DNA of 64,000 bases, taken from Actinomycetota bacterium (GTDB lineage Bacteria; Actinomycetota; Actinomycetes; S36-B12). A program made the position numbers and the translations under genes. The notes below the pieces were generated by a model. It had not been told where the DNA came from. It did not search any database and worked only from the letters and a program-made list of their open reading frames with translations. This document shows positions 3,396 to 31,600 of this stretch, in pieces. The stretch is taken from NCBI GenBank assembly GCA_009699465.1, contig WLOE01000001.1:309-64308 (forward strand). The letters are read 5' to 3'. The stretch's first letter is position 1. Each line of letters starts with the position of its first letter.

Positions 3396-4397
3396 TTAGT
3401 TCCACCATTGTGCCAAATGCACACCAAGTTCGTGCCCTGACTTCCATGCGGCTTCCACCTTCGGTCCACCAGCCCATGAATCCCCTGCGAGACCGATGCG
3501 ATTGCCCTCATCGAAGGAATACAGCTCCGGACGCGCAGATGTTGGCTTGGCGAACGTCCATCGCATTGCCGATGACCACTGCGGATGTTCGGTCAAACCA
3601 AGAATTGGCAACAACGCATCGAGTGCTTGTGGAATGACACCTGCTGGATCAGTGAGGTACTGCGCTGCAAGTTCTGGATGAACGTGAGCGACTACTACCG
3701 GATCTTCATTGCCACGACGGTGACCATCATTGGCAATCCAAGTGAGCACCGGATGCTCATTCACAAAGATGCCATCGAATTTGGGCAAAGTATCTGGCTC
3801 AAACACTGCTGTAACAGCAATTACTGCTTCCCAATCGATTTGATTGAGAATTTCGTGCGTCGATGCGAGCGCAGCATCGATGAATTGCTTTGCCTGAGGA
3901 TCTGGAACACAGACTGCAACAGCACTGAATGGCTCACCATCAACAACAACGTGATCCTCTTGAACAGAAACCGCTGCAACCTGTGTTGACGGTTGAATCA
4001 GCTCAGTAGGAAGTATTTCCGCTTGATGTTCAATGATTGAACGCAAACCATTGGTTGCCGAATAGCGCATCGGGCCAGTTCGAATACCGCTGATGCCTGC
4101 AGGAGTTGCGACATGGAAGGCGTCGGTCCATTCTCGAGCGACACCAGTGTCAATCCATAAATTCACAACCGTTGCAAAATCTGGATCTTGCACGGTGAAG
4201 TAGGAAGCACCAATATCCGTGATGTGCCCATCGAATGCCGTACCAGATTCGCGAATGCGTCGACTTGCCATTCGCCCGCCAACTACGCGACCGCGATCAA
4301 TGACGCGAAACGGGACGTTGTGCTGATGAAGCATCCGAGCGCAGGCAATGCCGCTCATCCCTGCACCAATAACGGCAATCGGTAATTGATTAGTCAC
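3396..4397 (-). CDS. NAD(P)/FAD-dependent oxidoreductase (renalase/amine-oxidase-like, COG3380 type)
   Basis: N-terminal Rossmann motif IAVIGAGMSGIACARML, then a GGR element (VVGGRM). 333 aa. Confidence 0.65.
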   Translation of the reverse strand: MTNQLPIAVIGAGMSGIACARMLHQHNVPFRVIDRGRVVGGRMASRRIRESGTAFDGHITDIGASYFTVQDPDFATVVNLWIDTGVAREWTDAFHVATPAGISGIRTGPMRYSATNGLRSIIEHQAEILPTELIQPSTQVAAVSVQEDHVVVDGEPFSAVAVCVPDPQAKQFIDAALASTHEILNQIDWEAVIAVTAVFEPDTLPKFDGIFVNEHPVLTWIANDGHRRGNEDPVVVAHVHPELAAQYLTDPAGVIPQALDALLPILGLTEHPQWSSAMRWTFAKPTSARPELYSFDEGNRIGLAGDSWAGGPKVEAAWKSGHELGVHLAQWWN

Positions 4398-18197: not shown

Positions 18198-18300
18198 AGC
18201 TGTCGTACTCCTTCATAGTTACCTGGCCGGGATGGCCAGAAGTTCAATAGCTCAAGTCTCCTCACCCTGAGGCCCTGTTGCAAGTCCTGCATCAGATCCT

Positions 18301-18318
18301 TTGAGTCGAGTGGACTCA
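18301..18318. promoter_or_regulatory. HAIR-like HspR operator (TTGAGT-N7-ACTCA)
   Basis: tTTGAGT-cgagtgg-ACTCAta matches 11 of 14 positions of the known HAIR consensus CTTGAGT-N7-ACTCAAG. Lies 104-121 nt upstream of the dnaK start. Confidence 0.65.
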
Positions 18319-18390
18319 TATCTATACAACTCAGGTACCGCAGGTTTCATTCCCGGCATCTTCAGGTTCTTAGAGTGATCTGTGTCACAT

Positions 18391-18417
18391 AAAACAAAAG
18401 CCGCCCCGAGGGGCGGC
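18391..18417 (-). terminator. Rho-independent terminator downstream of dcd
   Basis: 7-bp GC stem 18400-18406/18411-18417 (GCCGCCC/GGGCGGC), loop CGAG. Followed on the minus strand by TTTTGTTTT. Confidence 0.8.
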
Positions 18418-18432
18418 TGATGCGAAGGGCTT

Positions 18433-19008
18433 TTAGATCGAAGTGCGATGGAAATTCGCGAACGACCGGCTCGGGGTTGGTCCGCGCTGACCTTGGTAGC
18501 GCGAGCCGTACTTTTCCGAGCCGTATGGATGTTCGGCTGGGCTCGACAGACGAAACAAACACAACTGCCCGATCTTCATCCCTGGGTAGAGCAGGATCGG
18601 CAGGTTCGCAACATTTGCCAGCTCAAGGGTGACGTGCCCAGAAAAGCCAGGGTCGATGAAACCAGCAGTTGAGTGCGTGAGCAGGCCCAGACGACCAAGA
18701 GAGGACTTTCCCTCTAGGCGGCCAGCCAAATCATCAGGAAGTGACACCACTTCATAGGTTGAGCCCAGTACGAATTCCCCAGGGTGCAGCACAAAAGGCT
18801 CATCGCCTTCAGGCTCAATCAAGCGGGTCAACTCAGGCTGCTCAGTGCGAGGATCGATATATGGGTACTTGTGGTTCTCAAACACTCGAAACCATCGGTC
18901 TAAGCGCACATCGATGCTCGACGGCTGAATCATCGCCTCGTCATAAGGCTCAACAGCAACGCGGCCCGAAGTAATCTCGGCCTTGAAATCTCCATCTGAA
19001 AGCAGCAC
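18433..19008 (-). CDS. dcd: dCTP deaminase
   Basis: 191 aa. MLLSDGDF...[20 protein letters not shown]-terminus and [15 protein letters not shown] motif of Dcd. Confidence 0.9.
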
Positions 19009-19159
19009 GGGACGAGGTTATCTAACCTCGGTCTTTATTGCACAGACGACCGGGGTTAATTCAGTGCAACTCACAGCACAGCACGGCAAAGTGCGAGGAC
19101 ATCGTCAAGTAGTTCGAAGCTGAGACAGGCAGTCCGATGGGATGCCAAACTGCGGAGTT

Positions 19160-21545
19160 ACTGCTTGCCCGGGACGCCGAGACGTCCATCACCAGCATCC
19201 AGCAGCATCGCCATCCACCATGAGACCTCGGTGGCCGTCAACGTAGGGAGCCGCACCATGCAGACCGGGATCTTGAACGACGTCCGGATTGTCGACCTTT
19301 CGGACGGCATCGCCGGCCCGACGGCCACCATGGTGCTCGCCGAGGCAGGCGCCGACGTCGTACTCGTGGAGCCACCAGGTGGAGTGACCACCCGTTCCCT
19401 GCCGGGCTTCAAGACCTGGAACCGCAGCAAGCAATCTGTCGTGCTGGACGTGCATGAGTCCGCTGGCCGCGAGCGCCTCGACGCGTTGCTGGCCGGCGCG
19501 GACGTGCTAGTCCACTCGCTCTCGCCGACCAAGGCACGCGAGCTCGGGCTCGATGATGCCTCGCTGGCCGCCGCCCATCCGCATCTCATCGCCTGCTCGG
19601 TGCTCGCGTGGCCGGCGAACCATCCCGATGCGGAGCTGCCGGTCGACGACCTGCTCGCGCTCGCGCGCATGGGCGTGCTCGACGAGCAGCAGGGCCTGCG
19701 TGAGGGCCCCATCTACGTGCGCTTCCCACTGGGCAGCTGGGGCGCGGTCTGGCTTGCCGCCATGGGGATCATGGCCCGGCTCATCGTCCGTGGCCGCACA
19801 GGCTCGGCCGGCCCGATACATACAAGCCTGGTGCAAGGCGCCCTGATCCCGATGATGATGCACTGGTCGCGGGCGGAAACGCCGTCCGACGCCCTTCGGA
19901 TCGGTATGCCCAAGGGGAACATGCAGGCCTCGCTCTTCGAATGCTCCGACGGGCGCTGGGTGCACGCGATGCAGCCGGCCCCGTGGGGCACCCCGCTCAT
20001 GGACGAGGCGCTGGGCGAGCTGGGACCGGAAGCCGTCGAGGAGGGTGCGACCCTCGCCGCGACTGGCCTCTGGGGGGACATGACTCTGGTACGCAAGGCG
20101 TTCCTGCGCCGGACGGCGCAGGCCTGGCTCGACAACGCCTGGGCCAACGACCGACCGGCGCAGGGCGCGTTCGAGGTGGGCGCGATCCTCGGCGACGAGC
20201 AGGCACGCATCAACCGCTACGTCATCGAACTGGATGACCCGGAGGCCGGGCGCATCACGGTGCCCGGGCTGCCGCTGACCTTGGACCCTCCGACGCAGGT
20301 GCGCTGGCCCGCGCCGGCGCTCGGCCAGCACCAGGATGCGGCAGGAGCCGACTGGGCTCCGAGGGAGGCTCCAGTGGCCGAGGCCACGAGCCAGCGCTAC
20401 CCGCTGGCCGGCTTGAAAGTGCTGGACTTCGGCAACTACCTGGCCGGCCCGCTCGGCCCGATGCTGCTGGCCGACCTCGGCGCCGATGTCATCAAGGTCG
20501 AGGCCACCACTGGCGACCCGATGCGCTGGGGGGATTGGCCCTTCGCCGGCTGCCAGCGCGGCAAGCGCACCATCGCGGTTGATCTCAAGTCACCTGACTC
20601 GCGCCCCGTGCTCGAATCGCTTGTGCGATGGGCCGACGTCGTCCACCACAACCTGCGCATGCCCGCCGCTCGCCGCCTGGGCCTGGACTCCGCGTCGCTG
20701 CGGAAGATCAACCCCGATCTCGTCTTCTGCCACACGAGCTCCTACGGCCCGAAGGGGCCGCGCGCCGATTGGCCTGGCTATGACCAGCTGTTCCAGTCGT
20801 CCTGCGGCTGGGAGGTTGCCGGCGCCGGCGAGGGCAACCGGCCGATGTGGCACCGCTTCGGCTTCATGGACCACCAGTGCGCGATGTCGTCGGTGGTCTC
20901 CACACTGCTCGCGGTCTACGAGCGCGACCGCACCGGCCGCGCTATCGATGTGGCCGGCTCGCTGCTCGGACCCGGCGTGCTCACCACGAGCGAGACCTAC
21001 CTGCAGGCCGACGGCACGCTCGCACCGATGGCCCGGCTCGACCACGACCAGATGGTCACCACGCCCGGTGCCCGCCTGCTCATTTGCTCGGATGCGTGGA
21101 TCGCTGTGGCCGCGCATCGCGACGACCAGGTTGCGCGCCTGTGCGAGGTGCTCGGCGTGGTCGCCCCGGACTCGCTTCCGAAGGCCGCCGCCGACCGCGC
21201 ATCCGGCGAACTACTCCACGCGCTCGCAGCAGCAGACGTACCGGCCGAGCTCGTGCGGCTCGACAACAAGAACTCCTTCTTCGACGACCCGGCCAACCAG
21301 GAGATCGGGTTGGTTGTCTCCTACCAGCACGGCGCCTGGGGCCGTCTCGAGCAGCCGGGCGCAATGTGGGACTTCGGCGACCTCGACACGAGGTTCGACT
21401 ATGCGCCGCCGCTGCTCGGCGAGCACACCGTCGAAGTGCTGCGCGAGATCGGCTTCGACGAGGCCGGCATCGATGGGCTGCTCGCCGCGCAGGTGGTCAA
21501 GACCGCCTAGCGACAAGGCAGAGTTATCGCCGGCGGAGGCGACCC
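19160..21545. other. Compositional island: ~2.4-kb high-GC block, putative horizontally acquired single-gene insertion
   Basis: Hand-counted 60-nt lines inside give 43/60 and 41/60 G+C. Lines outside give 32/60, 25/60 and 26/60. Long shadow ORFs pile up in many frames on both strands only here. Boundaries are approximate, to within about 30 nt. Confidence 0.7.
19258..21510 (+). CDS. Family III (CaiB/BaiF-type) CoA-transferase, tandem two-module fusion
   Basis: 750 aa from ATG at 19258, with AGGGAG Shine-Dalgarno 7-12 nt upstream. The track ORF starts at 19165. Module 1 begins VRIVDLSDGIAGPTATMVLAEAGADVV. Module 2 restarts near residue 385 with LKVLDFGNYLAGPLGPMLLADLGADVIKVE. Confidence 0.8.
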   Translation: MQTGILNDVRIVDLSDGIAGPTATMVLAEAGADVVLVEPPGGVTTRSLPGFKTWNRSKQSVVLDVHESAGRERLDALLAGADVLVHSLSPTKARELGLDDASLAAAHPHLIACSVLAWPANHPDAELPVDDLLALARMGVLDEQQGLREGPIYVRFPLGSWGAVWLAAMGIMARLIVRGRTGSAGPIHTSLVQGALIPMMMHWSRAETPSDALRIGMPKGNMQASLFECSDGRWVHAMQPAPWGTPLMDEALGELGPEAVEEGATLAATGLWGDMTLVRKAFLRRTAQAWLDNAWANDRPAQGAFEVGAILGDEQARINRYVIELDDPEAGRITVPGLPLTLDPPTQVRWPAPALGQHQDAAGADWAPREAPVAEATSQRYPLAGLKVLDFGNYLAGPLGPMLLADLGADVIKVEATTGDPMRWGDWPFAGCQRGKRTIAVDLKSPDSRPVLESLVRWADVVHHNLRMPAARRLGLDSASLRKINPDLVFCHTSSYGPKGPRADWPGYDQLFQSSCGWEVAGAGEGNRPMWHRFGFMDHQCAMSSVVSTLLAVYERDRTGRAIDVAGSLLGPGVLTTSETYLQADGTLAPMARLDHDQMVTTPGARLLICSDAWIAVAAHRDDQVARLCEVLGVVAPDSLPKAAADRASGELLHALAAADVPAELVRLDNKNSFFDDPANQEIGLVVSYQHGAWGRLEQPGAMWDFGDLDTRFDYAPPLLGEHTVEVLREIGFDEAGIDGLLAAQVVKTA

Positions 21546-21608
21546 GACAAAGAGCCATTCCGCGACGTTGTCTGGGAACGTGTCTTTCGTTTCACCCGTC
21601 CAAGCCAC

Positions 21609-22118
21609 GTGAAGCGCTCTTGGTTAACACGCCTACTTATTGCACCGATGGCTCTTCTTGTCATCGGAATAATTCCGACTACGGCACAGGCTGCTTCATC
21701 GCTGAATGCAGGCACAGTCTCAACGAATGTTGCTGAATTCCGTCAGGACATTCGTGGCCTCTTGAATTCCTACTACTCGAAATACGGCAGCCGTTTGTCT
21801 CCAACTGAACAAACACACATGACTAGTCTTATAAAACAAGTTGATACTGAGCTTGCGATAGTTCAATCAAAATCACAAGTCATTGCAAAACTCTCACAGC
21901 AGCAAGCGCCTAAGTCTAAACAACTCGCAGCAGCCCGTTCAGCAGCTAAGGCTTTCGACACTGCTTACTCACACGCAATGACGAGCTTGGAGCAAGTTCA
22001 ACCATTGCTACAGCCAAAACTTTCACTTTTCGAAGCGTTGCGAGCGAAATCTGATTTAGACCAGTCTCTGCAAACGTTCGAAACCTTAGGCACGCAACTA
22101 CACGCTCTGGCCGGCTAA
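21609..22118 (+). CDS. Hypothetical secreted protein, Ala/Gln/Ser/Lys-rich, predicted helical
   Basis: GTG at 21609 gives VKRSWLTRLLIAPMALLVIGIIPTTAQA-ASS (signal peptide with AQA site). In frame with the tail of shadow ORF 20847-22118. Composition is back to host-like. Alternative ATG at 21648. No motif recognised. Confidence 0.5.
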   Translation: MKRSWLTRLLIAPMALLVIGIIPTTAQAASSLNAGTVSTNVAEFRQDIRGLLNSYYSKYGSRLSPTEQTHMTSLIKQVDTELAIVQSKSQVIAKLSQQQAPKSKQLAAARSAAKAFDTAYSHAMTSLEQVQPLLQPKLSLFEALRAKSDLDQSLQTFETLGTQLHALAG

Positions 22119-22547
22119 CTAATCGTGTTCTTTCGAACTACGCAATCGCTTTGTTTCCCCGCGCGACTTCTTTGCGTTAAGTCGACGTTCGTTTGATCCC
22201 TTTGTTGGTCGCGTTGCTTTGCGTGTTCGCGCAGGTGGCGCAATGGCTTCGCGCAGAAGTTGTGCCAAACGCAGCTCAGCAGTCTTTCGATTCTGTAATT
22301 GAGACCGTTGTTCTGAGGCCGTAATTGTGATGCAGCCGTCTACTAACTTCGACTTCAAATTTTTCAATGCTCGTTCGCGTAGGTATTCGGGCAGGCTTGG
22401 GGAATTGGCAATGTCAAAACTGAGCTGCACGCGCGAATCCGCAGTGTTGACCCCCTGCCCGCCAGGGCCGGACGATCGAGAAAATTTCACGACCAATTCG
22501 GCCTGTGGAATCACCACAGCGCCACGAATGATGAGGTCGTCAGCCAT
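22119..22547 (-). CDS. arfB: Alternative ribosome-rescue factor ArfB (peptidyl-tRNA hydrolase, YaeJ type)
   Basis: 142 aa. GGQ motif SGPGGQGVNTADSRV and a basic C-terminal tail (RKATRPTKGSNERRLNAKKSRGETKRLR). Confidence 0.88.
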   Translation of the reverse strand: MADDLIIRGAVVIPQAELVVKFSRSSGPGGQGVNTADSRVQLSFDIANSPSLPEYLRERALKNLKSKLVDGCITITASEQRSQLQNRKTAELRLAQLLREAIAPPARTRKATRPTKGSNERRLNAKKSRGETKRLRSSKEHD

Positions 22548-22607
22548 GCGATAAGGATGGAGCAGAACGCTGACAATTGAAAACCGCTAAAGTAATTGAG
22601 CACCTTC

Positions 22608-22678
22608 GCGGGCGTAGTTCAGTGGTAGAACACCAGCTTCCCAAGCTGGATATGCGGGTTCGATTCCCGTCGCCCGCT
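22608..22678 (+). tRNA. tRNA-Gly (anticodon CCC)
   Basis: Folded by hand. Acceptor GCGGGCG/CGCCCGC, D-arm GTTC-AGTGGTA-GAAC, anticodon arm CCAGC-TTCCCAA-GCTGG (CCC at positions 34-36), T-arm GCGGG-TTCGATT-CCCGT, discriminator T. 3' CCA is not encoded. Confidence 0.9.
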
Positions 22679-22706
22679 CCGCTAGTGAGTCATTGTCTGG
22701 AATTGA

Positions 22707-23075
22707 TTAGCCGGTGACGGCAAACCAACGATCTTCCGGGTCTTTGAACGCGAAGCTTCTTACGCCCCCGTGTTCGCCAATCTCAATTGCTTCAACGCCA
22801 CGCTCGACAAACAGGTCACGCGTCTCCTCGAGATCGTCGACATGGAGAGCAACGGATGGAGTTGCAAGGTCCAGACCGTCAGGGTTATCGGCCATCAAAG
22901 CGAGCGGGACCAACTCGAAGGCAAATAACTGGTCTACAAAACCGACCTTGATGACGCAGTGATCACCAACTTCCGTGCGCTCCTTCTCGACCATACCGAT
23001 TTGCTCAATCCAGAATTTGCGACAGGCCTCCGCGTCATTGACATAGAGAACGACATAGCCAACGCGTATCGACAT
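22707..23075 (-). CDS. VOC-family (glyoxalase/bleomycin-resistance/dioxygenase fold) protein
   Basis: About 122 aa. IRVGYVVLYVNDAEA...FAFKDPEDRWF beta-alpha-beta-beta-beta pattern. Start set at MSIRVGY (ATG at 23075), preceded by AAGGAAAGG. The track start is 23093. Confidence 0.7.
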   Translation of the reverse strand: MSIRVGYVVLYVNDAEACRKFWIEQIGMVEKERTEVGDHCVIKVGFVDQLFAFELVPLALMADNPDGLDLATPSVALHVDDLEETRDLFVERGVEAIEIGEHGGVRSFAFKDPEDRWFAVTG

Positions 23076-23128
23076 CTCAGCCTTTCCTTGCATCGAAGAA
23101 GTGTGTGACGCCTACCGGACCCGGCTAC

Positions 23129-23527
23129 TTACTCGTCGCCAAGAAGTTCAGAGAGATCATTTGGCACATCGGCCATGCACTCGCGTAATGCCCAACTTGG
23201 AATCACTTCTAAGGCCGCTTCATTTGTGGCCTGCAACACGACCGGCGCCTTAATGCCATCTTCAAACGCTTGCCACCAGCGACCTGCACAAACAGCCCAT
23301 CGATCACCAGGCTGCAACCCAGCAAAACCAAACTGCGGCATAGGTGTTGAAAGATCATTGCCAATAGATTTTTGATGCTCGAGGAATTCCGCGGAGACCA
23401 CTGTGCACACTGTGTGTGACCCAATATCTTCAGGACCAGTGTTGCAAAATCCATCACGGTAAAACCCAGTCACGGGTTCCAGGCTGCACACTTCAAGTTC
23501 GTCACCGAACACATTGCGCTGGCTCAT
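23129..23527 (-). CDS. DUF2237 family protein
   Basis: 132 aa. NVFGDELEVCSLEPVTGFYRDGFCNTGPEDIGSHTVC is the characteristic DUF2237 N-terminus. Confidence 0.7.
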   Translation of the reverse strand: MSQRNVFGDELEVCSLEPVTGFYRDGFCNTGPEDIGSHTVCTVVSAEFLEHQKSIGNDLSTPMPQFGFAGLQPGDRWAVCAGRWWQAFEDGIKAPVVLQATNEAALEVIPSWALRECMADVPNDLSELLGDE

Positions 23528-23581
23528 GGGTTGAGTGTACGAAAGATAGGAGTATTCAAAGACAACGACACTGGTCCATCA

Positions 23582-25618
23582 TCATTGTTGAAGTACTCGC
23601 GTGAATAGTGGGGAAAGCCCCTGAGCCGCTCCAACAGAGATATGGCCATCATCTCGATACAGATATGTATCACCGATTTGAGTCATGCAGATGCCTTCTG
23701 GACAGAAATACTCGCGTAAATCCAGCACGGTGGCACCCGTAGCGACACCAACTGCATTCGTTGCATCGCGAGCCGCGCGTTGGTTGCTGTCAGCAATGGC
23801 CTGCGGCATCTGCGATCCGAGGTTTTCTCCGCTGGATATCTGCGGCACCGAGAACTGCCGCGGATCTGACGCGTACGGGCTCACGAAATACGGAACATCT
23901 TGAACTAACACAACACGGTGTCCGGAGGCCTGAAGTTGCTCCACAGTTGAAAGCAATCCAGCCTGCAGAATTGCACGCTTCGCTGCAAGGTCACTAGTGA
24001 GCGAATCAGGAGTTACGCCAGCACTGAACACTTTCGAGTTCCAATAGACACTTGAGGAAGAAAGAATCACGGTTCCAGGTGGCTGTTGCTTAAGCCATGT
24101 CAAAGTTTTCTGTACGAATTTTCTGCACGGTGATTTCGGTGCTGCAGTTGAATACAAGTACACGTCGTAGAACGGACAAGCATTTGCCGTGGCAATAGTG
24201 AGTGGGTCGTTGAGTTCTTGAGTCGCTGCAATCACTGCTTCGCTTAAATGATCTGCATGCGAGTCACCGATGAGATACACATGCGCGCCAGTTCCATCGC
24301 CATTCCATACGCACTTGGTTGCTTTGCGATCGCTCGGCGCTATTGAGTTATTGCATCCAGCTGCATTTCCCGCATGCATTGGTTGCACTGTCGCGACAAA
24401 TTGCTGAACGCGTGTATTCCAAAAACCATTATCCGCTGCGCTCCACAGGCCTAGAGCCAACACAATCGGCGGAATCATCGTGGCGGCAATAATGCCCGTC
24501 ATTTTTCTTTTACTTACGTTGCGTAGATTTCGAATTGGCTGTTCAAGCCACTGATAGGAAATCAATGACGGAACAAGTGAAGCCGCTGCAGCAATGATTG
24601 CAATCCCGGGCACTGTTGGCCACAGGATCAGTGCGAACACAATGAACGGCCAATGCCATAGGTAAAACGAATACGAGATATTGCCGATATGAACGAAAGG
24701 CGCTCGCCCAAGAAAATGACTCACTGCGTTGGCTTCTGCATATCCTGCAACGAGCAAACACATCGTGCTCACAACCGGAAGAATGGTGATCGGTCCTGGC
24801 CAGATCGTTTGGTCGTTAACTAAATAAAGTGAAGCGACCAAACCAAGGATGCCAACGGCACCAAGAATTAACCCGAGGCCTTTTGTGATGGCAGGTTCAA
24901 TTTTGAAAGCCAACAGTGCAAGGATCGCACCGGCTGCGAATTCCCATGCTCGACTCGTAGGGCCATAGAAGCCACTGAGCCAGCTCGGTAACAGCGGAAT
25001 CGTGTGGCCTGCAGCTTCCACCATTGCGATTGCAAACGACAGTGCACCGATGACGCCCACGAAGATAAATGGCATGAAACGAGTCGCTGGTTTTCTTGCC
25101 AACTTCCACCCAAGGAATAGGACAAGCGGGAAAATCAGATAAAACTGTTCTTCCACCGACAATGACCACGTATTCAATAACGGGTTTGCGGCGGCGGGTG
25201 CATCAAAGTAGCCGCCAGTTGTTTTCGCAATCACGATGTTGGCGCTGAGTAGTAGTGCGCCAATGCCTGTTTGGGCCGCGATTTGTTGATCGCCCATGGG
25301 TGAAGCGATGAATGCGGACAGCACCACAACACCAACCACCAGCAGAGCAAGGGCAGGGGTTAGCCGTCGAAACCTTCTGGCATAGAAAGTGGAAAAGCGC
25401 AGGCTTTGGGTTTTGGCCCACTCTCGACCGAGCATGGCAGTGATAACAAAACCAGAAATAACGAAGAAAATGTCTACGCCTATGAATCCACCCGGGACAG
25501 GTAAACCGGCGTGGAAAGCAACCACGGTTCCCACCGCAATAGCTCTGAGGCCCTGAATATCGTTGCGCCTGTTTTCGGTAAAAGGCAGTGAGGAGATGCC
25601 AGATTCAGGGTGCGACAT
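23582..25618 (-). CDS. Acyltransferase-3 membrane domain fused to SGNH domain (OafA/YrhL-type O-acyltransferase)
   Basis: 678 aa. N-terminal RNDIQGLRAIAVGTVVAFHAG...DIFFVISGFVIT (Acyl_transf_3), about 10 TM segments. C-terminal extracytoplasmic domain with the YLIGDSHADHL SGNH block. Confidence 0.85.
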   Translation of the reverse strand: MSHPESGISSLPFTENRRNDIQGLRAIAVGTVVAFHAGLPVPGGFIGVDIFFVISGFVITAMLGREWAKTQSLRFSTFYARRFRRLTPALALLVVGVVVLSAFIASPMGDQQIAAQTGIGALLLSANIVIAKTTGGYFDAPAAANPLLNTWSLSVEEQFYLIFPLVLFLGWKLARKPATRFMPFIFVGVIGALSFAIAMVEAAGHTIPLLPSWLSGFYGPTSRAWEFAAGAILALLAFKIEPAITKGLGLILGAVGILGLVASLYLVNDQTIWPGPITILPVVSTMCLLVAGYAEANAVSHFLGRAPFVHIGNISYSFYLWHWPFIVFALILWPTVPGIAIIAAAASLVPSLISYQWLEQPIRNLRNVSKRKMTGIIAATMIPPIVLALGLWSAADNGFWNTRVQQFVATVQPMHAGNAAGCNNSIAPSDRKATKCVWNGDGTGAHVYLIGDSHADHLSEAVIAATQELNDPLTIATANACPFYDVYLYSTAAPKSPCRKFVQKTLTWLKQQPPGTVILSSSSVYWNSKVFSAGVTPDSLTSDLAAKRAILQAGLLSTVEQLQASGHRVVLVQDVPYFVSPYASDPRQFSVPQISSGENLGSQMPQAIADSNQRAARDATNAVGVATGATVLDLREYFCPEGICMTQIGDTYLYRDDGHISVGAAQGLSPLFTRVLQQ

Positions 25619-25787
25619 CCGACCTCCTCAACCTGCACATCTGAACGAGTCGGCAGTCTATGGGGCCAGATACCAGTGATTTACGAGAGCAACACCACGT
25701 TGATGCGGTCCTAAGGTCCTTGTTTTCTGACGTATTCTTGAGAATCTGCTTGATAGCAGTCCTGATATCTTCCCCTGGAGTGAGACC

Positions 25788-27473
25788 TTGACCGAAGTGC
25801 ACGGCCGAAAGCGGATTGAGCTGACAACCGCCACGTTGGTCACTATCGGTATCGTCATAGCGGTATTCGCGTTGATTTTGGTGGGTACCACCAAGGCCGC
25901 TCGCGCTGGTGAATCTGGGCCAGATACGGCTCCAAGTGCTGAAACCAGTGGCAACACCCCGATGAATCTGGAAGTTCAAGCCGCCGAAGGTTCCCTCAGT
26001 GACATAAAGAATGTCGTGATGATTCTGGCCGACGACCTTGATTGGGCTGCCTTTAATCAAGTGCCACGGTTGGCTGCGCTGAAGAAAGAAGGCACCACCC
26101 TTTCAAACTTCGTCGTGACTAATTCGCTTTGCTGCCCATCGAGAACATCGTTCATGCGAAGTCAATATGTGCATAACCACCGGGTTCTCACAAATGTCAA
26201 AGCGACAGGTGGTGGCTGGGAAACTTTTGCGGCACGTGGATTAGAAAAAGATTGCTTGCCTACTTGGCTCAATAAAGCAGGAGTAAACACCTCACTCATC
26301 GGTAAATACCTCAACGGTTTTCCGAACGGCACTCCGGCAATCAATTACATTCCACCAGGGTACGACTACTTCGTTACGTCAACTTCTAAGAATCAGGCGT
26401 ATCAAGGTTTTGATTACACACTCAACGAGAATGGCACGCTGAAGGATTATGGGCGTAAGTCATCAGATTTCATGAATGCAGTACTCGTGAAGAATGCAAC
26501 TGCATACTTAAAGTCAGTCAAGGCTCCATTCTTTATGGAATTTGCTTCGTACAACCCGCACACCCCAGCACCTTTTGAAGCTAAATACGCAAAGACCCAC
26601 ACCACCGACGTCATTCCTCGCACGCCGGCGTTCAACACCATCGGAACAAATGAATTGGGTTGGCTAGCAGGTCGCGAGACACTCACAGCGAAACGTATCT
26701 CCAACCTTGATCGCTTGTGGCAGAAGCGTTTACGGTCAACTGAATCTATCGCGGATACATACGAAGCACTGCAAGCGCAACTCAAGGCAACAGGTCACTC
26801 TGATGACACGCTGATCATTCTCACGTCAGACAACGGTTATCACGCGGGCGTTCATCGTCTTGCCACTGGCAAGCAGACTGCCTACAAGGAAGACGCGGTA
26901 GTGCCGGCTATTTTTATCGGACCAGGAATCGCTAAGGGTGCTGTGATCTCTCAAATCACTTCCATGGTCGATCTTGGGCCAACGATCAGTTCAATCTTCG
27001 GAGCAAAAACGCCTTCATACATTGATGGAAGAAATCTTGCGCCGCTCCTTCGTGGTGAAACACAGACACCGTGGCGCACTGCGGCTCTGACTGAAAACCT
27101 TGCCCGAACTACACCAGGTGACCCTGATTACTCCCCAGACGCAGTGCCACCGTTCCATGCACTTCGTAGCGAGAACTGGCTTTATGTTGAATACTTCAAT
27201 GGAGATGTCGAGTTGTATGACCTCAAGACTGACCCGTTCGAAATGAACAATGTTCAAGCATCAACAAACCCCGCGATAGTTGCCCAACTTCATGCGCAAC
27301 TACAGGCACTTCAAAATTGCAAAGGTGCAACTTGCCGTCTGGCTGATGCAATGCCAAATGGCACTTCGATTTTGCCATTACCTCAGATCACCGCGGTTCC
27401 GTCAACATCACCTTCTGCATCGGTGAGTTCAACACCACTTCCTAGCGCTTCTGCAACAACACCTGTTCAATAA
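25788..27473 (+). CDS. Membrane-anchored Cys-type sulfatase (formylglycine-dependent family)
   Basis: VVMILADDLDW metal-binding start and the SLCCPSRTSFM (C-x-P-x-R) signature. Single N-terminal TM. C-terminal Ser/Pro/Thr-rich tail. TTG start with GGAG 8 nt upstream. Confidence 0.8.
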   Translation: MTEVHGRKRIELTTATLVTIGIVIAVFALILVGTTKAARAGESGPDTAPSAETSGNTPMNLEVQAAEGSLSDIKNVVMILADDLDWAAFNQVPRLAALKKEGTTLSNFVVTNSLCCPSRTSFMRSQYVHNHRVLTNVKATGGGWETFAARGLEKDCLPTWLNKAGVNTSLIGKYLNGFPNGTPAINYIPPGYDYFVTSTSKNQAYQGFDYTLNENGTLKDYGRKSSDFMNAVLVKNATAYLKSVKAPFFMEFASYNPHTPAPFEAKYAKTHTTDVIPRTPAFNTIGTNELGWLAGRETLTAKRISNLDRLWQKRLRSTESIADTYEALQAQLKATGHSDDTLIILTSDNGYHAGVHRLATGKQTAYKEDAVVPAIFIGPGIAKGAVISQITSMVDLGPTISSIFGAKTPSYIDGRNLAPLLRGETQTPWRTAALTENLARTTPGDPDYSPDAVPPFHALRSENWLYVEYFNGDVELYDLKTDPFEMNNVQASTNPAIVAQLHAQLQALQNCKGATCRLADAMPNGTSILPLPQITAVPSTSPSASVSSTPLPSASATTPVQ

Positions 27474-29688
27474 CCTGCTGTGCGGCAGTGCCTCGATCGA
27501 ATTCGCAGAATTTAGCCCGGAAGGCTTCGAGTCGCGCGTTACTTTCGGTTGATTTGAAGCTTTCCGTTGCAAAGATTTCATTGAGCTGTGCCTGATTCGT
27601 TGCCAGGGCACCTGGAGGCGTGGCCAACAAATCAAAGTACGTTCCTCGAGCATCGCAATACGCTTCCCAATCATCAGCGAAAATAACGATGGGACGATTC
27701 AAGACCGCATAATCAAACATCACTGACGAGTAGTCGGTAATTAGAATATCGGCTGCGAGATAACAATCAATGATCGATGGAAAAGTAGACCCATCGATTA
27801 CACGTCCTGAAGCAACAAGCTCGTTGATCTTTGGGCCCAAAGTGGTGGTGTGGTGGGCGCGCAGAATGAATACATATGACTCATCAACCTTACTGATTAA
27901 TTCATCAAAGTTGATTCGCAAAGAACTATCGCCTTCAACATCTCGATAAGTCGGCGCGTACAGCACAACTTTCTGATGCGCTTGAACACCAATACGCGTT
28001 CTAGCTGCTGCCATTTCATTCGGTCCAGAGTTCACTAATACGTCATTGCGTGGGTATCCAACTTCGAGCCACGTGTATTGGCATGGGTAGGCATGGCCCC
28101 ACATTTCTGTTGAATACGCGTTAGAACTAATGGCGTAATCCCAGTTATCGCTTCGCCGGAGTAGATCAGAAAATTCTTGACGGCTACGGGATGGGTCAAG
28201 TGCAACGACTTGATCCCCCTTCCGAGGAGCCACGCGCTTAGGGTCAATTGCGGAACTCGCCACAGCATTATTCATGACGTCGAGACCGCAAAATTTTAAT
28301 GGTGTGCCATGCATTGTTTGAATGACAACTTGCTCAGGCCGCTTTTTGAATGCACCCGGAAAGTTCACGTTGTTAACGAAGTACTGAGCGCGCGCGAACA
28401 CCGCCCATTGCCTCAAAGTATTTGGCGCCACGTGCTTTACGCCCGGAGGTAGCTTGCCTGTCTGGTCTTTCTCCATAATCCATACAGCTGTGAGGTGTGG
28501 CGCAAAGGTTGGCAAGGCTTCATAAATTGCCCGTGGATTACAGCCGTAGCCGCTTCCCCAGTATTCAGAAAACACCACAACATTTTTCTTGATTGGCAAC
28601 ATCCGGAAAAAGCCGTACCAAAGTCGACCAACTGCCCGAACCTTGCGAACTGTTCGACGCACAGGCCAGTAAATCTTGCCAATAAAGCGTCGAGTGGGAA
28701 CCCTGCGTTCATCTACCCAGCTATAGAGCTTGAAAGTGGTGTACGAGTTATTGCGGAAAAACTTTCCTCTGATGTTGCTCGGAAAATTCTTTCTGTGTTC
28801 TTCAGAGTGGTCGGGGTAGTGTTTTCTTGCTGAATCTGATGCCGCAGCAAAAAACCGCTTGCGCTCTGACTTTGCAATGCGTCCGCGATGGCGAATGATC
28901 GTGACGTAATGGTTCACCATGATGTCGTACAGGTGCTTGCGCAGGCCAGGGCTTACTTCAGCACGATTCGCTTCGACAAAAACACGGTCATACTGCTCGA
29001 ATACATCAAAGTGGCGTGGGCTTGGCGTTCCAAGAATGTTGCCCCCTGAACGCCGTTGACGGTAGAGCAACACCACTCGATTTAATGAGACAGCACGCTG
29101 TGCGTTCAAAAGGACTGCATAGGTGTAGGAGATGTCTTCGTACAAGCCAGTTGGGAATTGCACGCCAAGTGCTTGGAGGAAGTCACGTCGGTACGCCTTG
29201 TTGCAAGCGATCGGGAGCAAATTAAACAAGCGCCGATGATCTCTGGGTGTGAACGTCCCAACGGAAAGGTTGGCGAGGAGTTCACCACCCCAGCTCACTG
29301 CCTCTTTGCCATCCCACCACACTCGCGAATAGTTGTAGATCAAAACTTCAGGAAGATCATTACGCCGAAGTTTTTCGGCAATTGCTTTCAAAGAACCCGA
29401 CGCAAAGGTGTCGTCACCGTCAAGGAACAAGATGTACTCACCATGTGCAGCTTCAACACCGATATTTCGCGCATTGCCAAGCCCACCATTTTTTTCTAGA
29501 TGCAGTACTCGAATCCTTGCATCAGACAGAGCGAGCTCATCAGCAATCTCGCCGCTGTGGTCAGGCGTACAGTCGTCAACGATGATGATCTCGAAATCTT
29601 CGAAATCCTGAAGGAGCACCGAATCCACGGCTGCGCGCAGATATGACTGCACGCTGTAAGCCGGCACGATGATGGAGAAGAACGCCAT
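27442..29688 (-). CDS. Bifunctional GT2 glycosyltransferase / TagF-type CDP-glycerol glycerophosphotransferase
   Basis: N-terminus FSIIVPAYSVQSYLRAAVDSVLLQDFEDFEIIIVDDCTPD plus FLDGDD (GT-A/GT2). C-terminus YFVNNVNFPGAFKKRPEQVVIQTMHGTPLK and DYSSVMFDYAVLNRPIVIFADD (Glyphos_transf). ATG at 29688. The track uses an upstream TTG at 29727. Confidence 0.85.
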   Translation of the reverse strand: MAFFSIIVPAYSVQSYLRAAVDSVLLQDFEDFEIIIVDDCTPDHSGEIADELALSDARIRVLHLEKNGGLGNARNIGVEAAHGEYILFLDGDDTFASGSLKAIAEKLRRNDLPEVLIYNYSRVWWDGKEAVSWGGELLANLSVGTFTPRDHRRLFNLLPIACNKAYRRDFLQALGVQFPTGLYEDISYTYAVLLNAQRAVSLNRVVLLYRQRRSGGNILGTPSPRHFDVFEQYDRVFVEANRAEVSPGLRKHLYDIMVNHYVTIIRHRGRIAKSERKRFFAAASDSARKHYPDHSEEHRKNFPSNIRGKFFRNNSYTTFKLYSWVDERRVPTRRFIGKIYWPVRRTVRKVRAVGRLWYGFFRMLPIKKNVVVFSEYWGSGYGCNPRAIYEALPTFAPHLTAVWIMEKDQTGKLPPGVKHVAPNTLRQWAVFARAQYFVNNVNFPGAFKKRPEQVVIQTMHGTPLKFCGLDVMNNAVASSAIDPKRVAPRKGDQVVALDPSRSRQEFSDLLRRSDNWDYAISSNAYSTEMWGHAYPCQYTWLEVGYPRNDVLVNSGPNEMAAARTRIGVQAHQKVVLYAPTYRDVEGDSSLRINFDELISKVDESYVFILRAHHTTTLGPKINELVASGRVIDGSTFPSIIDCYLAADILITDYSSVMFDYAVLNRPIVIFADDWEAYCDARGTYFDLLATPPGALATNQAQLNEIFATESFKSTESNARLEAFRAKFCEFDRGTAAQQVIEQVLLQKR

Positions 29689-29776
29689 GGGTGATGAGAA
29701 TAGGCCTTGTCTCGACGACTCTCCCAAGCACGAAACTTAGAGAGGGGAAAAAGACCCGCTGTAGTAGGGTCAACAG

Positions 29777-30673
29777 GTGAATTCAGGCGGCGTAGATTGC
29801 TTAAATCCCGTTCTTGTAGGTGGAACCGGCCGTAGTGGCTCGACCATCACGGGCCAGCTCCTGGGGCAGCATCCAGATCTCTTTTTAACCGATCCACCTG
29901 AAATTCGCTTCCTTGCCAACGATCACGGTGTGGCAGAAGCGCTCACCATGACTCGCGGTGGCTGGATGACTCGCCGAAAGGCCAAGTCGGAGGCAAAATT
30001 TTGCTTGGAACGCACGAAAACCCTGTGGTTCTGGCGCGCTGCAAAAATCGGACTTCACACCTCGATCACAATCGAAGAAGTTGATGCCCTTGGTCAGGCA
30101 TACCTTGAAGACTTTGGGCGTGATCCTGTAGCCGCTTCACAAGCTTTTACCTACGCCATCATGCGCAAGGTTGCCGCTCCTGCCGAAGGTCGTCGTTGGG
30201 TAGACACCACGCCAGCAAATTCACGTATTTCAGAACAGATCGAACCGATTTACCCACAGTCCCAAGTTATCTCCATGATTCGTGATGGCCGCGACGTTGC
30301 TGCTTCCTTCGTCGCGCAGACATTCGGACCTAATGAAATTTTTGCTTCACTTCGCCAATGGGAGAAACGCTCATTACTGATTCACCAAGCAACATTAGCC
30401 AGCCGCACAGGTCGATGCATCATCGTGGACATGCTCGATCTCGTAGATCGCGATCGAGAAAACACCCTGCAGCGCATATGTGACTTTATTGACGTGCCTG
30501 TCGACCCAGGAATGAAAGCATGGTTTGACGAAACTGTTAATGCAGAGAATGCAAACGTGGGGCGTTGGCGTTCACAGTTTGATGAAGAGACAACCAAGGA
30601 AATTGACCGTGTCTATGGGGAAATGGTCGAACGTCTTCGGGCACAAGGCGTCCAGATCCCACTCGAGTCATAG
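29777..30673 (+). CDS. PAPS-dependent sulfotransferase family protein
   Basis: 298 aa. GGTGRSGSTITGQLL (5'-phosphosulfate-binding loop type) and ISMIRDGRDVAASF (3'-phosphate-binding type). GTG start. Confidence 0.7.
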   Translation: MNSGGVDCLNPVLVGGTGRSGSTITGQLLGQHPDLFLTDPPEIRFLANDHGVAEALTMTRGGWMTRRKAKSEAKFCLERTKTLWFWRAAKIGLHTSITIEEVDALGQAYLEDFGRDPVAASQAFTYAIMRKVAAPAEGRRWVDTTPANSRISEQIEPIYPQSQVISMIRDGRDVAASFVAQTFGPNEIFASLRQWEKRSLLIHQATLASRTGRCIIVDMLDLVDRDRENTLQRICDFIDVPVDPGMKAWFDETVNAENANVGRWRSQFDEETTKEIDRVYGEMVERLRAQGVQIPLES

Positions 30674-30685
30674 ACTGCACCAGTC

Positions 30686-31600
30686 ATGACGAATCCCGTT
30701 CCCACGGAAACGCGCCCAGTGCAGGTTTTCCTCCCACACCGTGCCGGCTTACCTCGTTTGGTGCCGTACTTTTCGAATTTATGGAAACGACGCCACTTCG
30801 CTGTTGAACTTTCGCGCGCATCTATGCGTTCAGCTCACACCAATACTTTCTTTGGTCAGTTCTGGCTAGTCATTGGCCCAGCACTCAATGCCGGGGTGTA
30901 CTTCCTTCTTGTCAGCGTCATTCGAGGTGGAAACGCTGGACCGGATTTCTTCATGCATCTGCTCGCTGGGCTTTTCGCTTTTAACTTCATTCAAGCCGTG
31001 ATGTCCAATGGTGCCACTTCAGTAACAAAAGGTGGCAACCTCGTGTTGAATACAGCATTTCCTCTCTTGCTGCTTCCATTCTCCGCTTTGCGCACTGCTT
31101 TCTTTAGATTTGTTCCTTCACTCATTATTTTGCTTGGGTTCTTCATTTACTTTGATTACTTCGGCGCGCAATCACAAGCATGCGACGCTGTTACTGGCGT
31201 ATGTGAAGAACTCAATACGATTCACTTCACGCCGATCATGTTCATGGCGATCCCTGCTTTACTTCTCATCTTTATCTTTGCTGCAGGTTTATCTGCCCTG
31301 ATGGCTTCTGTGCAAATTTATTTCCGTGACACCACACAGCTGCTCCCATATGCAACACGAATCTGGCTGTACCTATCACCGGTGCTCTACTACGCGGATC
31401 AAATGAAGCCTTGGATGTTGAAACTTGAGATCCTGAATCCGCTTTATCCGCTCCTTGGAATTTGGAGTGAGACTCTCGTGGAAGGCACAATTCCGCCATT
31501 GACTTGGTGGCTTGGTTCAGCTGCGTGGGCCTTTGGCTCACTCTTCATCGGTGTCTTCTTTTTCATGTCTCGCGAACGTGAGTTCGCGGTGCGAATTTAA
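30686..31600 (+). CDS. ABC-2 type polymer-export permease (TagG/Wzm-like)
   Basis: 304 aa, 6 predicted TM. Immediately upstream of the matching ATPase. N-terminal RRHFAVELSRASMRSAHTNTFFGQFWLVIGP is typical of ABC-2 exporters. Confidence 0.8.
   Translation: MTNPVPTETRPVQVFLPHRAGLPRLVPYFSNLWKRRHFAVELSRASMRSAHTNTFFGQFWLVIGPALNAGVYFLLVSVIRGGNAGPDFFMHLLAGLFAFNFIQAVMSNGATSVTKGGNLVLNTAFPLLLLPFSALRTAFFRFVPSLIILLGFFIYFDYFGAQSQACDAVTGVCEELNTIHFTPIMFMAIPALLLIFIFAAGLSALMASVQIYFRDTTQLLPYATRIWLYLSPVLYYADQMKPWMLKLEILNPLYPLLGIWSETLVEGTIPPLTWWLGSAAWAFGSLFIGVFFFMSREREFAVRI

Follow-up and report, generated by a model that had tools for sequence, protein, structure and literature searches.

A GC-rich gene in medium-GC surroundings

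The stretch of DNA analysed here (the window) comprises 64,000 nucleotides (nt) of contig WLOE01000001.1 from the Actinomycetota assembly GCA_009699465.1. Its host, a freshwater actinobacterium with a streamlined genome and a G+C content of about 52%, is affiliated with the Nanopelagicales by the labels of metagenome-assembled genomes (MAGs). Between dcd, which encodes dCTP deaminase, and a gene for a predicted secreted protein of 169 residues (p169) lies a single, much more GC-rich gene for a 750-residue coenzyme A (CoA)-transferase. The reading that we consider very probable is that this gene sits on a 2.49-kb foreign fragment, which was acquired from an actinobacterium of at least 65% G+C, integrated without mobility genes, maintained, and spread between species. 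The features of the locus are listed below in window coordinates. L numbers denote the sequences used for comparison; L088 belongs to a sister species in which the insertion site is empty.

18433-19008, minus strand: dcd (dCTP deaminase), native left flank; Pfam DCD, E = 2e-46; G+C at third codon positions (GC3) 0.599
19009-19052, no strand: native remainder of the spacer on the dcd side, 44 nt, with a hairpin at 19013-19030; 84% identity to the L088 spacer
19053-21542, plus strand: inserted segment, read as foreign, of leader, coding sequence and tail, 2,490 nt; local alignment to the L088 empty site
19053-19257, plus strand: non-coding leader of the insert, 205 nt; BLASTN and alignment
19245-19250, plus strand: Shine-Dalgarno-like AGGGAG, 7 nt before the ATG; read directly from the sequence
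19258-21510, plus strand: coding sequence of a 750-residue fused tandem family III (CaiB/BaiF) CoA-transferase, G+C 69.9%, GC3 0.876; Pfam, AlphaFold and Foldseek
21511-21542, plus strand: 3' tail of the insert, 32 nt; comparison with L115
21543-21608, no strand: native remainder of the spacer on the p169 side, 66 nt; aligns to L088 from 4516
21609-22118, plus strand: p169, native right flank, 169 residues, predicted secreted, 47% G+C

The initial annotation had described a sharply bounded high-GC block at 19160-21545, and the composition bears this out: the block has a G+C content of 69.7%, compared to 52.3% across the remaining window. The highest value of any other 2,386-nt segment is 55.5% (mean 52.3%, standard deviation 1.3%). 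Viewed in 1-kb steps, G+C averages 52-53%, with the exception of 19-22 kb, where it reaches 66-71%. Cumulative deviation places the change points at 19166 and 21546, and at 200-nt resolution the G+C content climbs within 19100-19300 and drops within 21400-21700. The GC3 of the CoA-transferase gene, 0.876, compares to 0.512 ± 0.055, with a maximum of 0.643, in the 52 other open reading frames of the window. None of these is comparably GC-rich, in agreement with the earlier remark that the third codon positions of the gene are unlike those of its neighbours. On recomputation, the G+C counts previously given for five 60-nt lines came to 44, 41, 32, 25 and 25 per 60 and had been at most one base off. 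The spurious stacked reading frames are present as cited (19507-20331 and 20590-21117 on the minus strand, 20486-21736 on the plus strand), as is the one intact gene (19258-21510) with its AGGGAG ribosome-binding site at 19245-19250. The gaps of 249 nt and 98 nt that flank the gene were also correct, and the nearby transfer RNA (tRNA) gene, tRNA-Gly, is found at 22608-22680. The account of sharp edges stands for the composition shift; it fails for the left side as an insertion edge, since the composition edge is at about 19165 and the true edge at 19053. The coding sequence begins with the ATG at 19258, where the homology of the relatives also begins, and not at the upstream TTG at 19165. The AGGGAG motif recurs in L108, L104 and L102.

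Junctions and the empty site

Comparison with sister species defines the ends of the insert. The gene order in L088-L091 and L095-L100, one of which is a 1.08-Mb contig, is dnaJ-grpE-dnaK-dcd | p169-arfB-DUF2237, and the dcd|p169 site is empty in all of them and likewise in L092-L094. Synteny, which the initial annotation had proposed to compare, therefore places dcd directly beside the gene at 21609 in these sister species. In the alignment to L088, left homology extends up to window position 19052 (L088 4519) and right homology resumes from 21543 (L088 4516), with a junction overlap of 4 nt, (A/C)CCG, at both insert edges. The insert splits an ancestral spacer of about 106 nt between the two divergent genes. 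Its first 112 nt (19053-19164) have a G+C content of only 54%, compared to 66% for the rest of the leader (19165-19257), and this is why the shift in composition on the left comes about 110 nt after the actual start of the insert.

There is no integrase or transposase gene in or beside 19053-21542, nor a convincing flanking repeat, as had been noted before. A repeat search over 18800-23200 returned no pair that brackets the insert, the listed pairs being short, imperfect and situated within the GC-rich coding sequence. The junctions contain neither a tRNA fragment nor a repeat longer than 4 nt, and the tRNA-Gly, 1.1 kb away, has no visible role in this insertion. Given the lack of mobility genes and the 4-nt microhomology, illegitimate recombination would be the most likely mode of integration. 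An Rfam search of 18300-22800 matched the tRNA-Gly only, and gave neither a riboswitch nor any other known RNA for the leader.

A terminator scan returned one hairpin, at 19013-19030, in the native DNA. Its 7-bp stem is perfect (CGAGGTTATCTAACCTCG) and leads into a T-rich run. The hairpin is located on the opposite strand, 5 nt ahead of the start codon of dcd, and is conserved only in part in L088 and L092. As the insert begins 44 nt from the dcd start codon, the dcd promoter may have been displaced.

The junctions are supported by independent assemblies. An identical protein in an identical context is encoded in the NCBI MAG GCA_009703685.1 (L001) and in two ENA assemblies (L002 and L003). 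These three align to the window without gaps at 99.7-99.9% identity, with strain-level single-nucleotide polymorphisms scattered on either side of the junctions. A 99%-identical protein occupies the same site in another species, the sister species to which L087 and L101 (a contig of 894 kb) belong, and the L087-type protein variant was found in 57 collection blocks, on contigs of up to 1.11 Mb. Altogether, the junctions are shared by at least six independent assemblies, including GCA_009703685.1, ERZ27263687, ERZ28613035, ERZ19026213 and ERZ19398099.

Relatives of the gene in high-GC DNA and at a tRNA-Val gene

Outside the gene's own 90% cluster, the best protein matches fall to 80% identity, in Jatrophihabitans sp. 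DSM 45814 and in a JGI contig of 68% G+C. Further matches, of 57-78% amino acid identity, carry the labels Actinomycetota, Acidimicrobiia and Frankia. From the 80% level down, the three closest homologues lie in DNA of 63-68% G+C and have a gene GC3 of 0.77-0.91. Much closer copies were obtained from a scan of JGI metagenomes. L108 and L115 carry the gene at 92-94% nucleotide identity to the window copy, in flanks of 64.5% and 67.6% G+C, respectively. The flanks contain core genes, Amidohydro_2 along with an alpha/beta hydrolase gene in L108, and tRNA-Phe/Asp/Glu and Sua5 in L115. These comparisons are of identities and flank G+C. By these measures L108 and L115 look like a donor-like lineage; the actual donor is a relative and not the L108/L115 organism itself. 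The nearest relatives outside the recipient lineages are accordingly found in high-GC DNA, in L108 and L115 and then in Jatrophihabitans, as the initial annotation had suggested checking.

The gene also occurs in a second medium-GC background. We refer to the dcd|p169 site as context A and to a tRNA-Val site, found in L102-L106, as context B. In the latter, the gene lies between aceE-DUF3052-bcp and tRNA-Val(tac)-NIF3 in DNA of 53-54% G+C. The context-B copies are 93-94% identical to the window copy in amino acids and 92.6% in nucleotides, and 95-96% identical to L108/L115. Their donor-derived DNA extends from 387 nt upstream of the ATG to the stop codon. Since neither of these ends is the same as in context A, there were at least two captures of the gene. 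In L102 and L104-L106 the context-B island is enclosed by the intact tRNA-Val and a 49-nt repeat of its 3' end (coordinates 3503-3551 and 3714-4583 in L106, and 2782-3056 in L102), and the island additionally encodes a protein with an Lcl_C domain. A peptide encoded after the context-B gene (...TLDLYGHLF...) has what we take to be a likeness to the C-terminus of a tyrosine recombinase; this candidate integrase remnant 3' of the gene is confirmed by neither Pfam nor PHROGs. A scan of viral contigs found the gene in no phage. L102 (GCA_037128195.1) was deposited as Planctomycetota despite its actinobacterial neighbours of the aceE/bcp/NIF3 type, and the label looks wrong.

The non-coding parts of the insert point to the same relatives. 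From about 19087-19097 up to the ATG, the window leader shares homology with the DNA that precedes the gene in L108 and in context B; about 38 extra nt (roughly 19155-19194) occur only in the lineages of the window and L087. After the stop codon, the first 9-10 nt or so of the tail resemble L115. Leader and tail show homology only to the flanks of the copies at 92-96% identity, and none to those of the 80%-identity homologues L084-L086.

Exchange of the locus between species

The presence of nearly the same gene at the same site in two species raises the question of how far the similarity extends. Gene-wise identities pair the window with L092 (about 88-89%) and L087 with L088 (84-88%). The nucleotide identity of the window to L087 is 86% in dcd, 79% in arfB and about 76% in the AT3 region, compared to 96-98% across the CoA-transferase gene, p169 and the spacers before each of them (about 18930-22100). 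Divergence at synonymous sites (dS) between the window and the L087-type sequences follows the same course. It is 0.06 in the CoA-transferase gene and 0.09 in p169, versus 0.42 in grpE, 0.53 in dnaK, 0.85-0.91 in dcd, 1.5 in arfB and 1.9 in DUF2237. The low dS of the two genes relative to their flanks indicates homologous recombination over a tract of about 3.1 kb:

18930-22100, no strand: recombination tract, approximate, 96-98% identity to the L087/L101 species; mismatch profile and dS

The history of p169 is informative here. Its nucleotide identity to L087 is 96%, versus 67-81% to the other sister species. We found only 15 homologues of this lineage-specific protein, of which those with names carry Candidatus Nanopelagicales or Actinomycetota MAG labels, and the gene, with a G+C content of 47%, is located near dcd/DUF2237 even in distant relatives. 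p169 is native to the lineage. Because it is both native and near-identical in the two species, independent insertion of the foreign gene at the same site cannot explain the pattern. p169 is fast-evolving, with 47-83% amino acid identity among relatives.

Selection and base composition

Every complete copy of the CoA-transferase examined is 750 residues long, and the ratios of nonsynonymous to synonymous divergence (dN/dS) between pairs of copies are 0.06-0.14. The gene is under purifying selection. To follow its base composition, singleton differences among the window, context-B and high-GC copies were assigned to terminal branches. Changes from GC to AT outnumber the reverse by 60 to 27 on the window branch (binomial p = 5e-4), by 77 to 27 on the L087 branch (p = 1e-6) and by 35 to 4 on the context-B branch (p = 3e-7); for the high-GC copy the ratio is 16 to 11, which is not significant. 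GC3, once at about 0.90, is now 0.85-0.87, and the host stands at 0.51. The substitution bias is consistent with early amelioration.

A tandem CoA-transferase with one predicted catalytic centre

The encoded protein matches Pfam PF02515 (CoA_transf_3) in two stretches (E = 2.9e-151), and its two halves are 28% identical to one another. The AlphaFold model has a mean local confidence (pLDDT) of 92.7 and a predicted template modelling score (pTM) of 0.94. In Foldseek, both halves match family III monomers of about 400 residues with a probability of 1.00 and a template modelling (TM) score of about 0.8 by target length; among these are Frc, SUGCT, BbsEF, CaiB, Rv3272 and MCR. Judged from this model, the cargo is an enzyme of conventional fold. 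It shares PF02515, the fold and the catalytic Asp with the family III CoA-transferases (Frc/YfdW, CaiB, SUGCT, BbsEF, Rv3272 and alpha-methylacyl-CoA racemase). It differs from the solved relatives in that those are single-domain dimerising chains of about 360-460 residues, whereas the window protein is a 750-residue fusion; neither the sequence search nor the fold search returned a solved chain with the fused architecture.

Alignment of the halves to characterised enzymes locates two codons of interest:

19735-19737, plus strand: codon of Ser160, at the catalytic-Asp position of the N-terminal half; aligned to Rv3272 Asp175 and the 10uh_A Asp
20869-20871, plus strand: codon of Asp538, predicted catalytic nucleophile of the C-terminal half; aligned to the formyl-CoA transferase Asp

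The nucleophile position corresponds to Frc Asp169 and Rv3272 Asp175 (5yit; 5yiy is the D175A mutant). All 50 homologues compared have Asp at position 538, and all 50 have S, T or N at position 160. The Asp in the ...AMTDIVAG... segment of the formyl-CoA transferase chain 10uh_A matches the Ser160 position, and in the intramolecular alignment S160 stands opposite D538. With Ser160 where the Asp would be, the N-terminal half is without a nucleophile. Judging from these alignments, there should be a single catalytic centre in the protein, to which the N-terminal half would be a structural partner. By homology, the enzyme would take CoA from an acyl-CoA and pass it to a carboxylic acid, forming an aspartyl-anhydride/thioester intermediate on Asp538 in the C-terminal half. 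The structural role that the second subunit supplies in homodimeric members would probably fall to the N-terminal half.

The fused family III CoA-transferases have 3,737 database matches at E ≤ 0.001, and a literature search on them and on M. tuberculosis Rv1866, which may have the same architecture, returned no functional information. The one characterised protein with this tandem build to come to light was DddD, the DMSP CoA-transferase/lyase of marine bacteria. Tandem CaiB-like domains in one polypeptide, at residues 1-416 and 439-821, are described for DddD of Endozoicomonas (PMC7174347), an enzyme for which a passage in PMC5395668 cites Alcolombri et al. 2014 as reporting a CoA-transferase/lyase. 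The likeness of the window protein to DddD is one of architecture only, two tandem CaiB-like domains per chain. The two differ in length (750 versus about 820 residues), host and habitat. A UniRef label starting 'Dimethylsulfoniop…' was encountered on a homologue of the 824-residue native-type fused family described below, and not on one of the window family. The analysis flags the window family as fused family III CoA-transferases with an apparent single catalytic centre and without a named equivalog or a solved fused structure.

A second fused transferase in the lineage

Close relatives encode a fused CoA-transferase of their own, 2 kb from the insertion site. The position concerned lies between DUF2237 and the AT3/SGNH acyltransferase gene:

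23544-23615, no strand: slot between DUF2237 and the AT3/SGNH acyltransferase gene, filled by 72 unrelated nt in the window; locus comparison

L092-L094 carry in this slot a native fused tandem CoA_transf_3 gene of 833-840 codons with a GC3 of 0.45-0.49 (2976-5477 in L092, 2986-5508 in L093). Its product is 27% identical to the window protein, and its own homologues are graded from 94% to 54%. L087 and L088 have a SnoaL_4 gene here, with or without a 73-residue reading frame, and no trace of the native fused transferase was found within the 64-kb window. Functional replacement of the native fused CoA-transferase by the foreign gene is a minority possibility with weak support. The absence of the native gene from the window and its presence in L092-L094 speak for it; against it, neither gene is present here in L088, identity between the two proteins is just 27%, and both fused types occur together in Jatrophihabitans sp. 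DSM 45814. The DUF2237-AT3 slot, 2 kb away from the insert, makes a second site of variation.

Weighing of the explanations

The abrupt change in composition, in a metagenome assembly whose protein labels read 'freshwater metagenome' or MAG, could in principle come from a high-GC fragment misjoined into a medium-GC contig during assembly or binning, the alternative that the initial annotation had raised. The junctions are, however, identical in at least six assemblies from different samples and pipelines, strain-level polymorphisms occur on both sides of them, and the insert and its native neighbour are jointly 96-98% conserved in a second species. A join at the same base that recurs in separate data sets effectively refutes a chimera, to which we assign practically no chance. 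That the gene is instead ancestral to the lineage, its high G+C the product of selection or biased gene conversion and its absence elsewhere the result of losses, would fit its purifying selection and its presence at the same site in two species. We find this hardly credible, since four sister or near-sister lineages have a clean empty site with a continuous spacer, and the gene is absent near dcd in the more distant relatives L004-L009 and L023 among the matches listed. Homologue identity jumps from 92-99% to 80%, the latter in high-GC organisms. The lineage's own fused CoA-transferase, only 27% identical, has the host composition and graded homologues (94% to 54%), and between the two species with the gene, dS amounts to 0.4-1.9 in the flanks, compared to 0.06 in the gene.

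Transfer in the opposite direction, from a medium-GC freshwater lineage into high-GC organisms, is suggested by the gene GC3 of 0.89-0.90 in L108/L115, above the 0.76-0.78 of its neighbours. It is nevertheless highly improbable: GC3 deviates by 0.36 from the medium-GC hosts versus about 0.12 from the high-GC contexts, the wider family (57-80% identity) resides in Jatrophihabitans, Frankia, Acidimicrobiia and other contigs of 63-70% G+C, and the medium-GC copies appear to be drifting to lower G+C, with the high-GC copy in balance. The segment might also be cargo of a site-specific integrative element, a tRNA island or a phage. The 49-nt direct repeat around the context-B copy in its tRNA-Val island, the recombinase-like peptide encoded after that copy and the tRNA-Gly located 1.1 kb from the window insert favour such an origin, which we regard as improbable for the window copy. 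Its junctions have no integrase, tRNA fragment or repeat above 4 nt, its insertion site is neither in nor beside a tRNA, Pfam and PHROGs do not support the supposed integrase remnant in context B, no viral contig has the gene, and the ends of the donor DNA differ between contexts A and B.

Acquisition of a foreign fragment followed by exchange between species is the reading that we prefer, and several observations weigh against parts of it. The exact donor is not among the samples, L108 and L115 being about 7% distant from the window copy in nucleotides. The GC3 of the gene in L108/L115 (0.89-0.90) exceeds that of their neighbours (0.76-0.78), so that both could be further recipients from a still more GC-rich source. 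The closest of the homologues from the 80% level down share no common gene neighbourhood, and adjacent genes offer no hint of a pathway. A sigma-70 scan found no consensus promoter in the leader, and a 4-nt match is weak evidence for a mechanism of integration. Signals for the direction of exchange are mosaic: nt 1-100 of p169 are like L088 (88%) and nt 101-300 like L092 (90%), a mosaicism that suggests repeated recombination at the locus. The substitution ratio of the window branch does not differ from that of the high-GC branch (Fisher p = 0.36); only context B does (p = 0.006). Against the NCBIfam equivalogs of named family III enzymes (Frc, CaiB, SUGCT-like, mesaconate and mesaconyl-CoA transferases, YfdE) there were seven matches, all far below their cut-offs (best NF052585, 196 bits versus 750). 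Finally, the Nanopelagicales assignment comes only from labels, namely those of a ClpB in the same 90% cluster, of a Dcd of 91% identity that is the nearest among the matches listed from species-representative genomes, and of a p169 homologue; the window proteins themselves are deposited under 'freshwater metagenome' or 'Actinomycetota bacterium'.

The preferred course of events would be as follows. A fragment from an actinobacterium of at least 65% G+C would have landed in the 106-nt dcd|p169 spacer, most likely by illegitimate recombination after DNA uptake. It would have brought one gene with its own ribosome-binding site and a leader that is in part donor-derived. Homologous recombination in the flanks would then have spread it, or re-imported it, across the species boundary together with p169. 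In a separate event, the same gene would have been captured at the tRNA-Val island of a second medium-GC background. The initial annotation had read the locus as a recent single-gene acquisition from a high-GC actinomycete. The acquisition stands; 'single' does not, in view of the later exchange between species and the separate tRNA-Val capture.

As horizontal gene transfer the case is clean and ordinary, an instance of a known process and not a new kind of genetic system. As in a classic transferred 'islet', G+C and GC3 depart from the host, the edges are sharp, an empty site exists and the homologues match in composition; an early substitution bias may be a further likeness. Unlike such an islet, the window locus has no mobility gene, tRNA target or long repeat, and the insert spread by recombination in its flanks. 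Of the two copies, it is that of context B, with its 49-nt repeat and intact tRNA-Val, which resembles tRNA-targeting islands; the window copy has no such features. The Nanopelagicales are streamlined freshwater bacteria (40-51% G+C, 1.16-1.55 Mb in the cultivated genera) with intra- and interspecific islands, and ComEF competence genes are near-ubiquitous among them (PMC12817590). Contigs of about 1.1 Mb with this locus are in keeping with such small genomes. The window resembles their flexible islands in that a tract was exchanged between species at a locus beside a hypervariable cell-envelope cluster. It differs in being one foreign gene whose source lies beyond the low-GC lineage, and not a replacement island of native composition.

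In public data the transfer of this one gene is visible almost stage by stage, from donor-like copies, empty site and breakpoints to second capture, spread, purifying selection and what may be the first traces of amelioration, and it provides a useful worked example of metabolic gene gain in genome-streamlined, abundant freshwater Actinomycetota. The repeated capture suggests that the gene is ecologically useful. A bolder proposal is that at least two captures and a gene-specific sweep reflect strong niche-specific selection for ATP-free acid activation by fused, single-active-site 'pseudo-heterodimeric' CoA-transferases. We regard this as tentative and rather unlikely to hold in full; under it, the foreign gene may compensate for the lost native fused CoA-transferase that relatives keep 2 kb away.

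Variation around the locus

Further differences between related genomes were observed nearby. At 22707-23093, by the tRNA-Gly, a glyoxalase-family gene is present in the window and L092 and absent in L087, L088 and L093, the third small presence/absence difference within 4 kb. Beyond it, a cell-envelope cluster at 23582-31600 encodes an AT3+SGNH acyltransferase, a sulfatase, a GT2/glycerophosphotransferase, a sulfotransferase and an ABC-2 transporter. Nucleotide identity in this cluster is about 75% between sister species, their chaperone genes being at about 88%, and it looks like a fast-diverging surface-polysaccharide island beside the insert.

The neighbourhood of dcd is rearranged as well as invaded. 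In L004, L008 and L009 (62-65% G+C) DUF2237 lies immediately upstream of dcd, and in L004 an AT3 acyltransferase gene follows dcd; in the window lineage both DUF2237 and the AT3 acyltransferase are found beyond p169-arfB-tRNA-Gly. L006, L008 and L009 (64-72% G+C), the closest to the window Dcd among the matches listed, are labelled Bifidobacterium breve or Bifidobacteriaceae, labels that look wrong.

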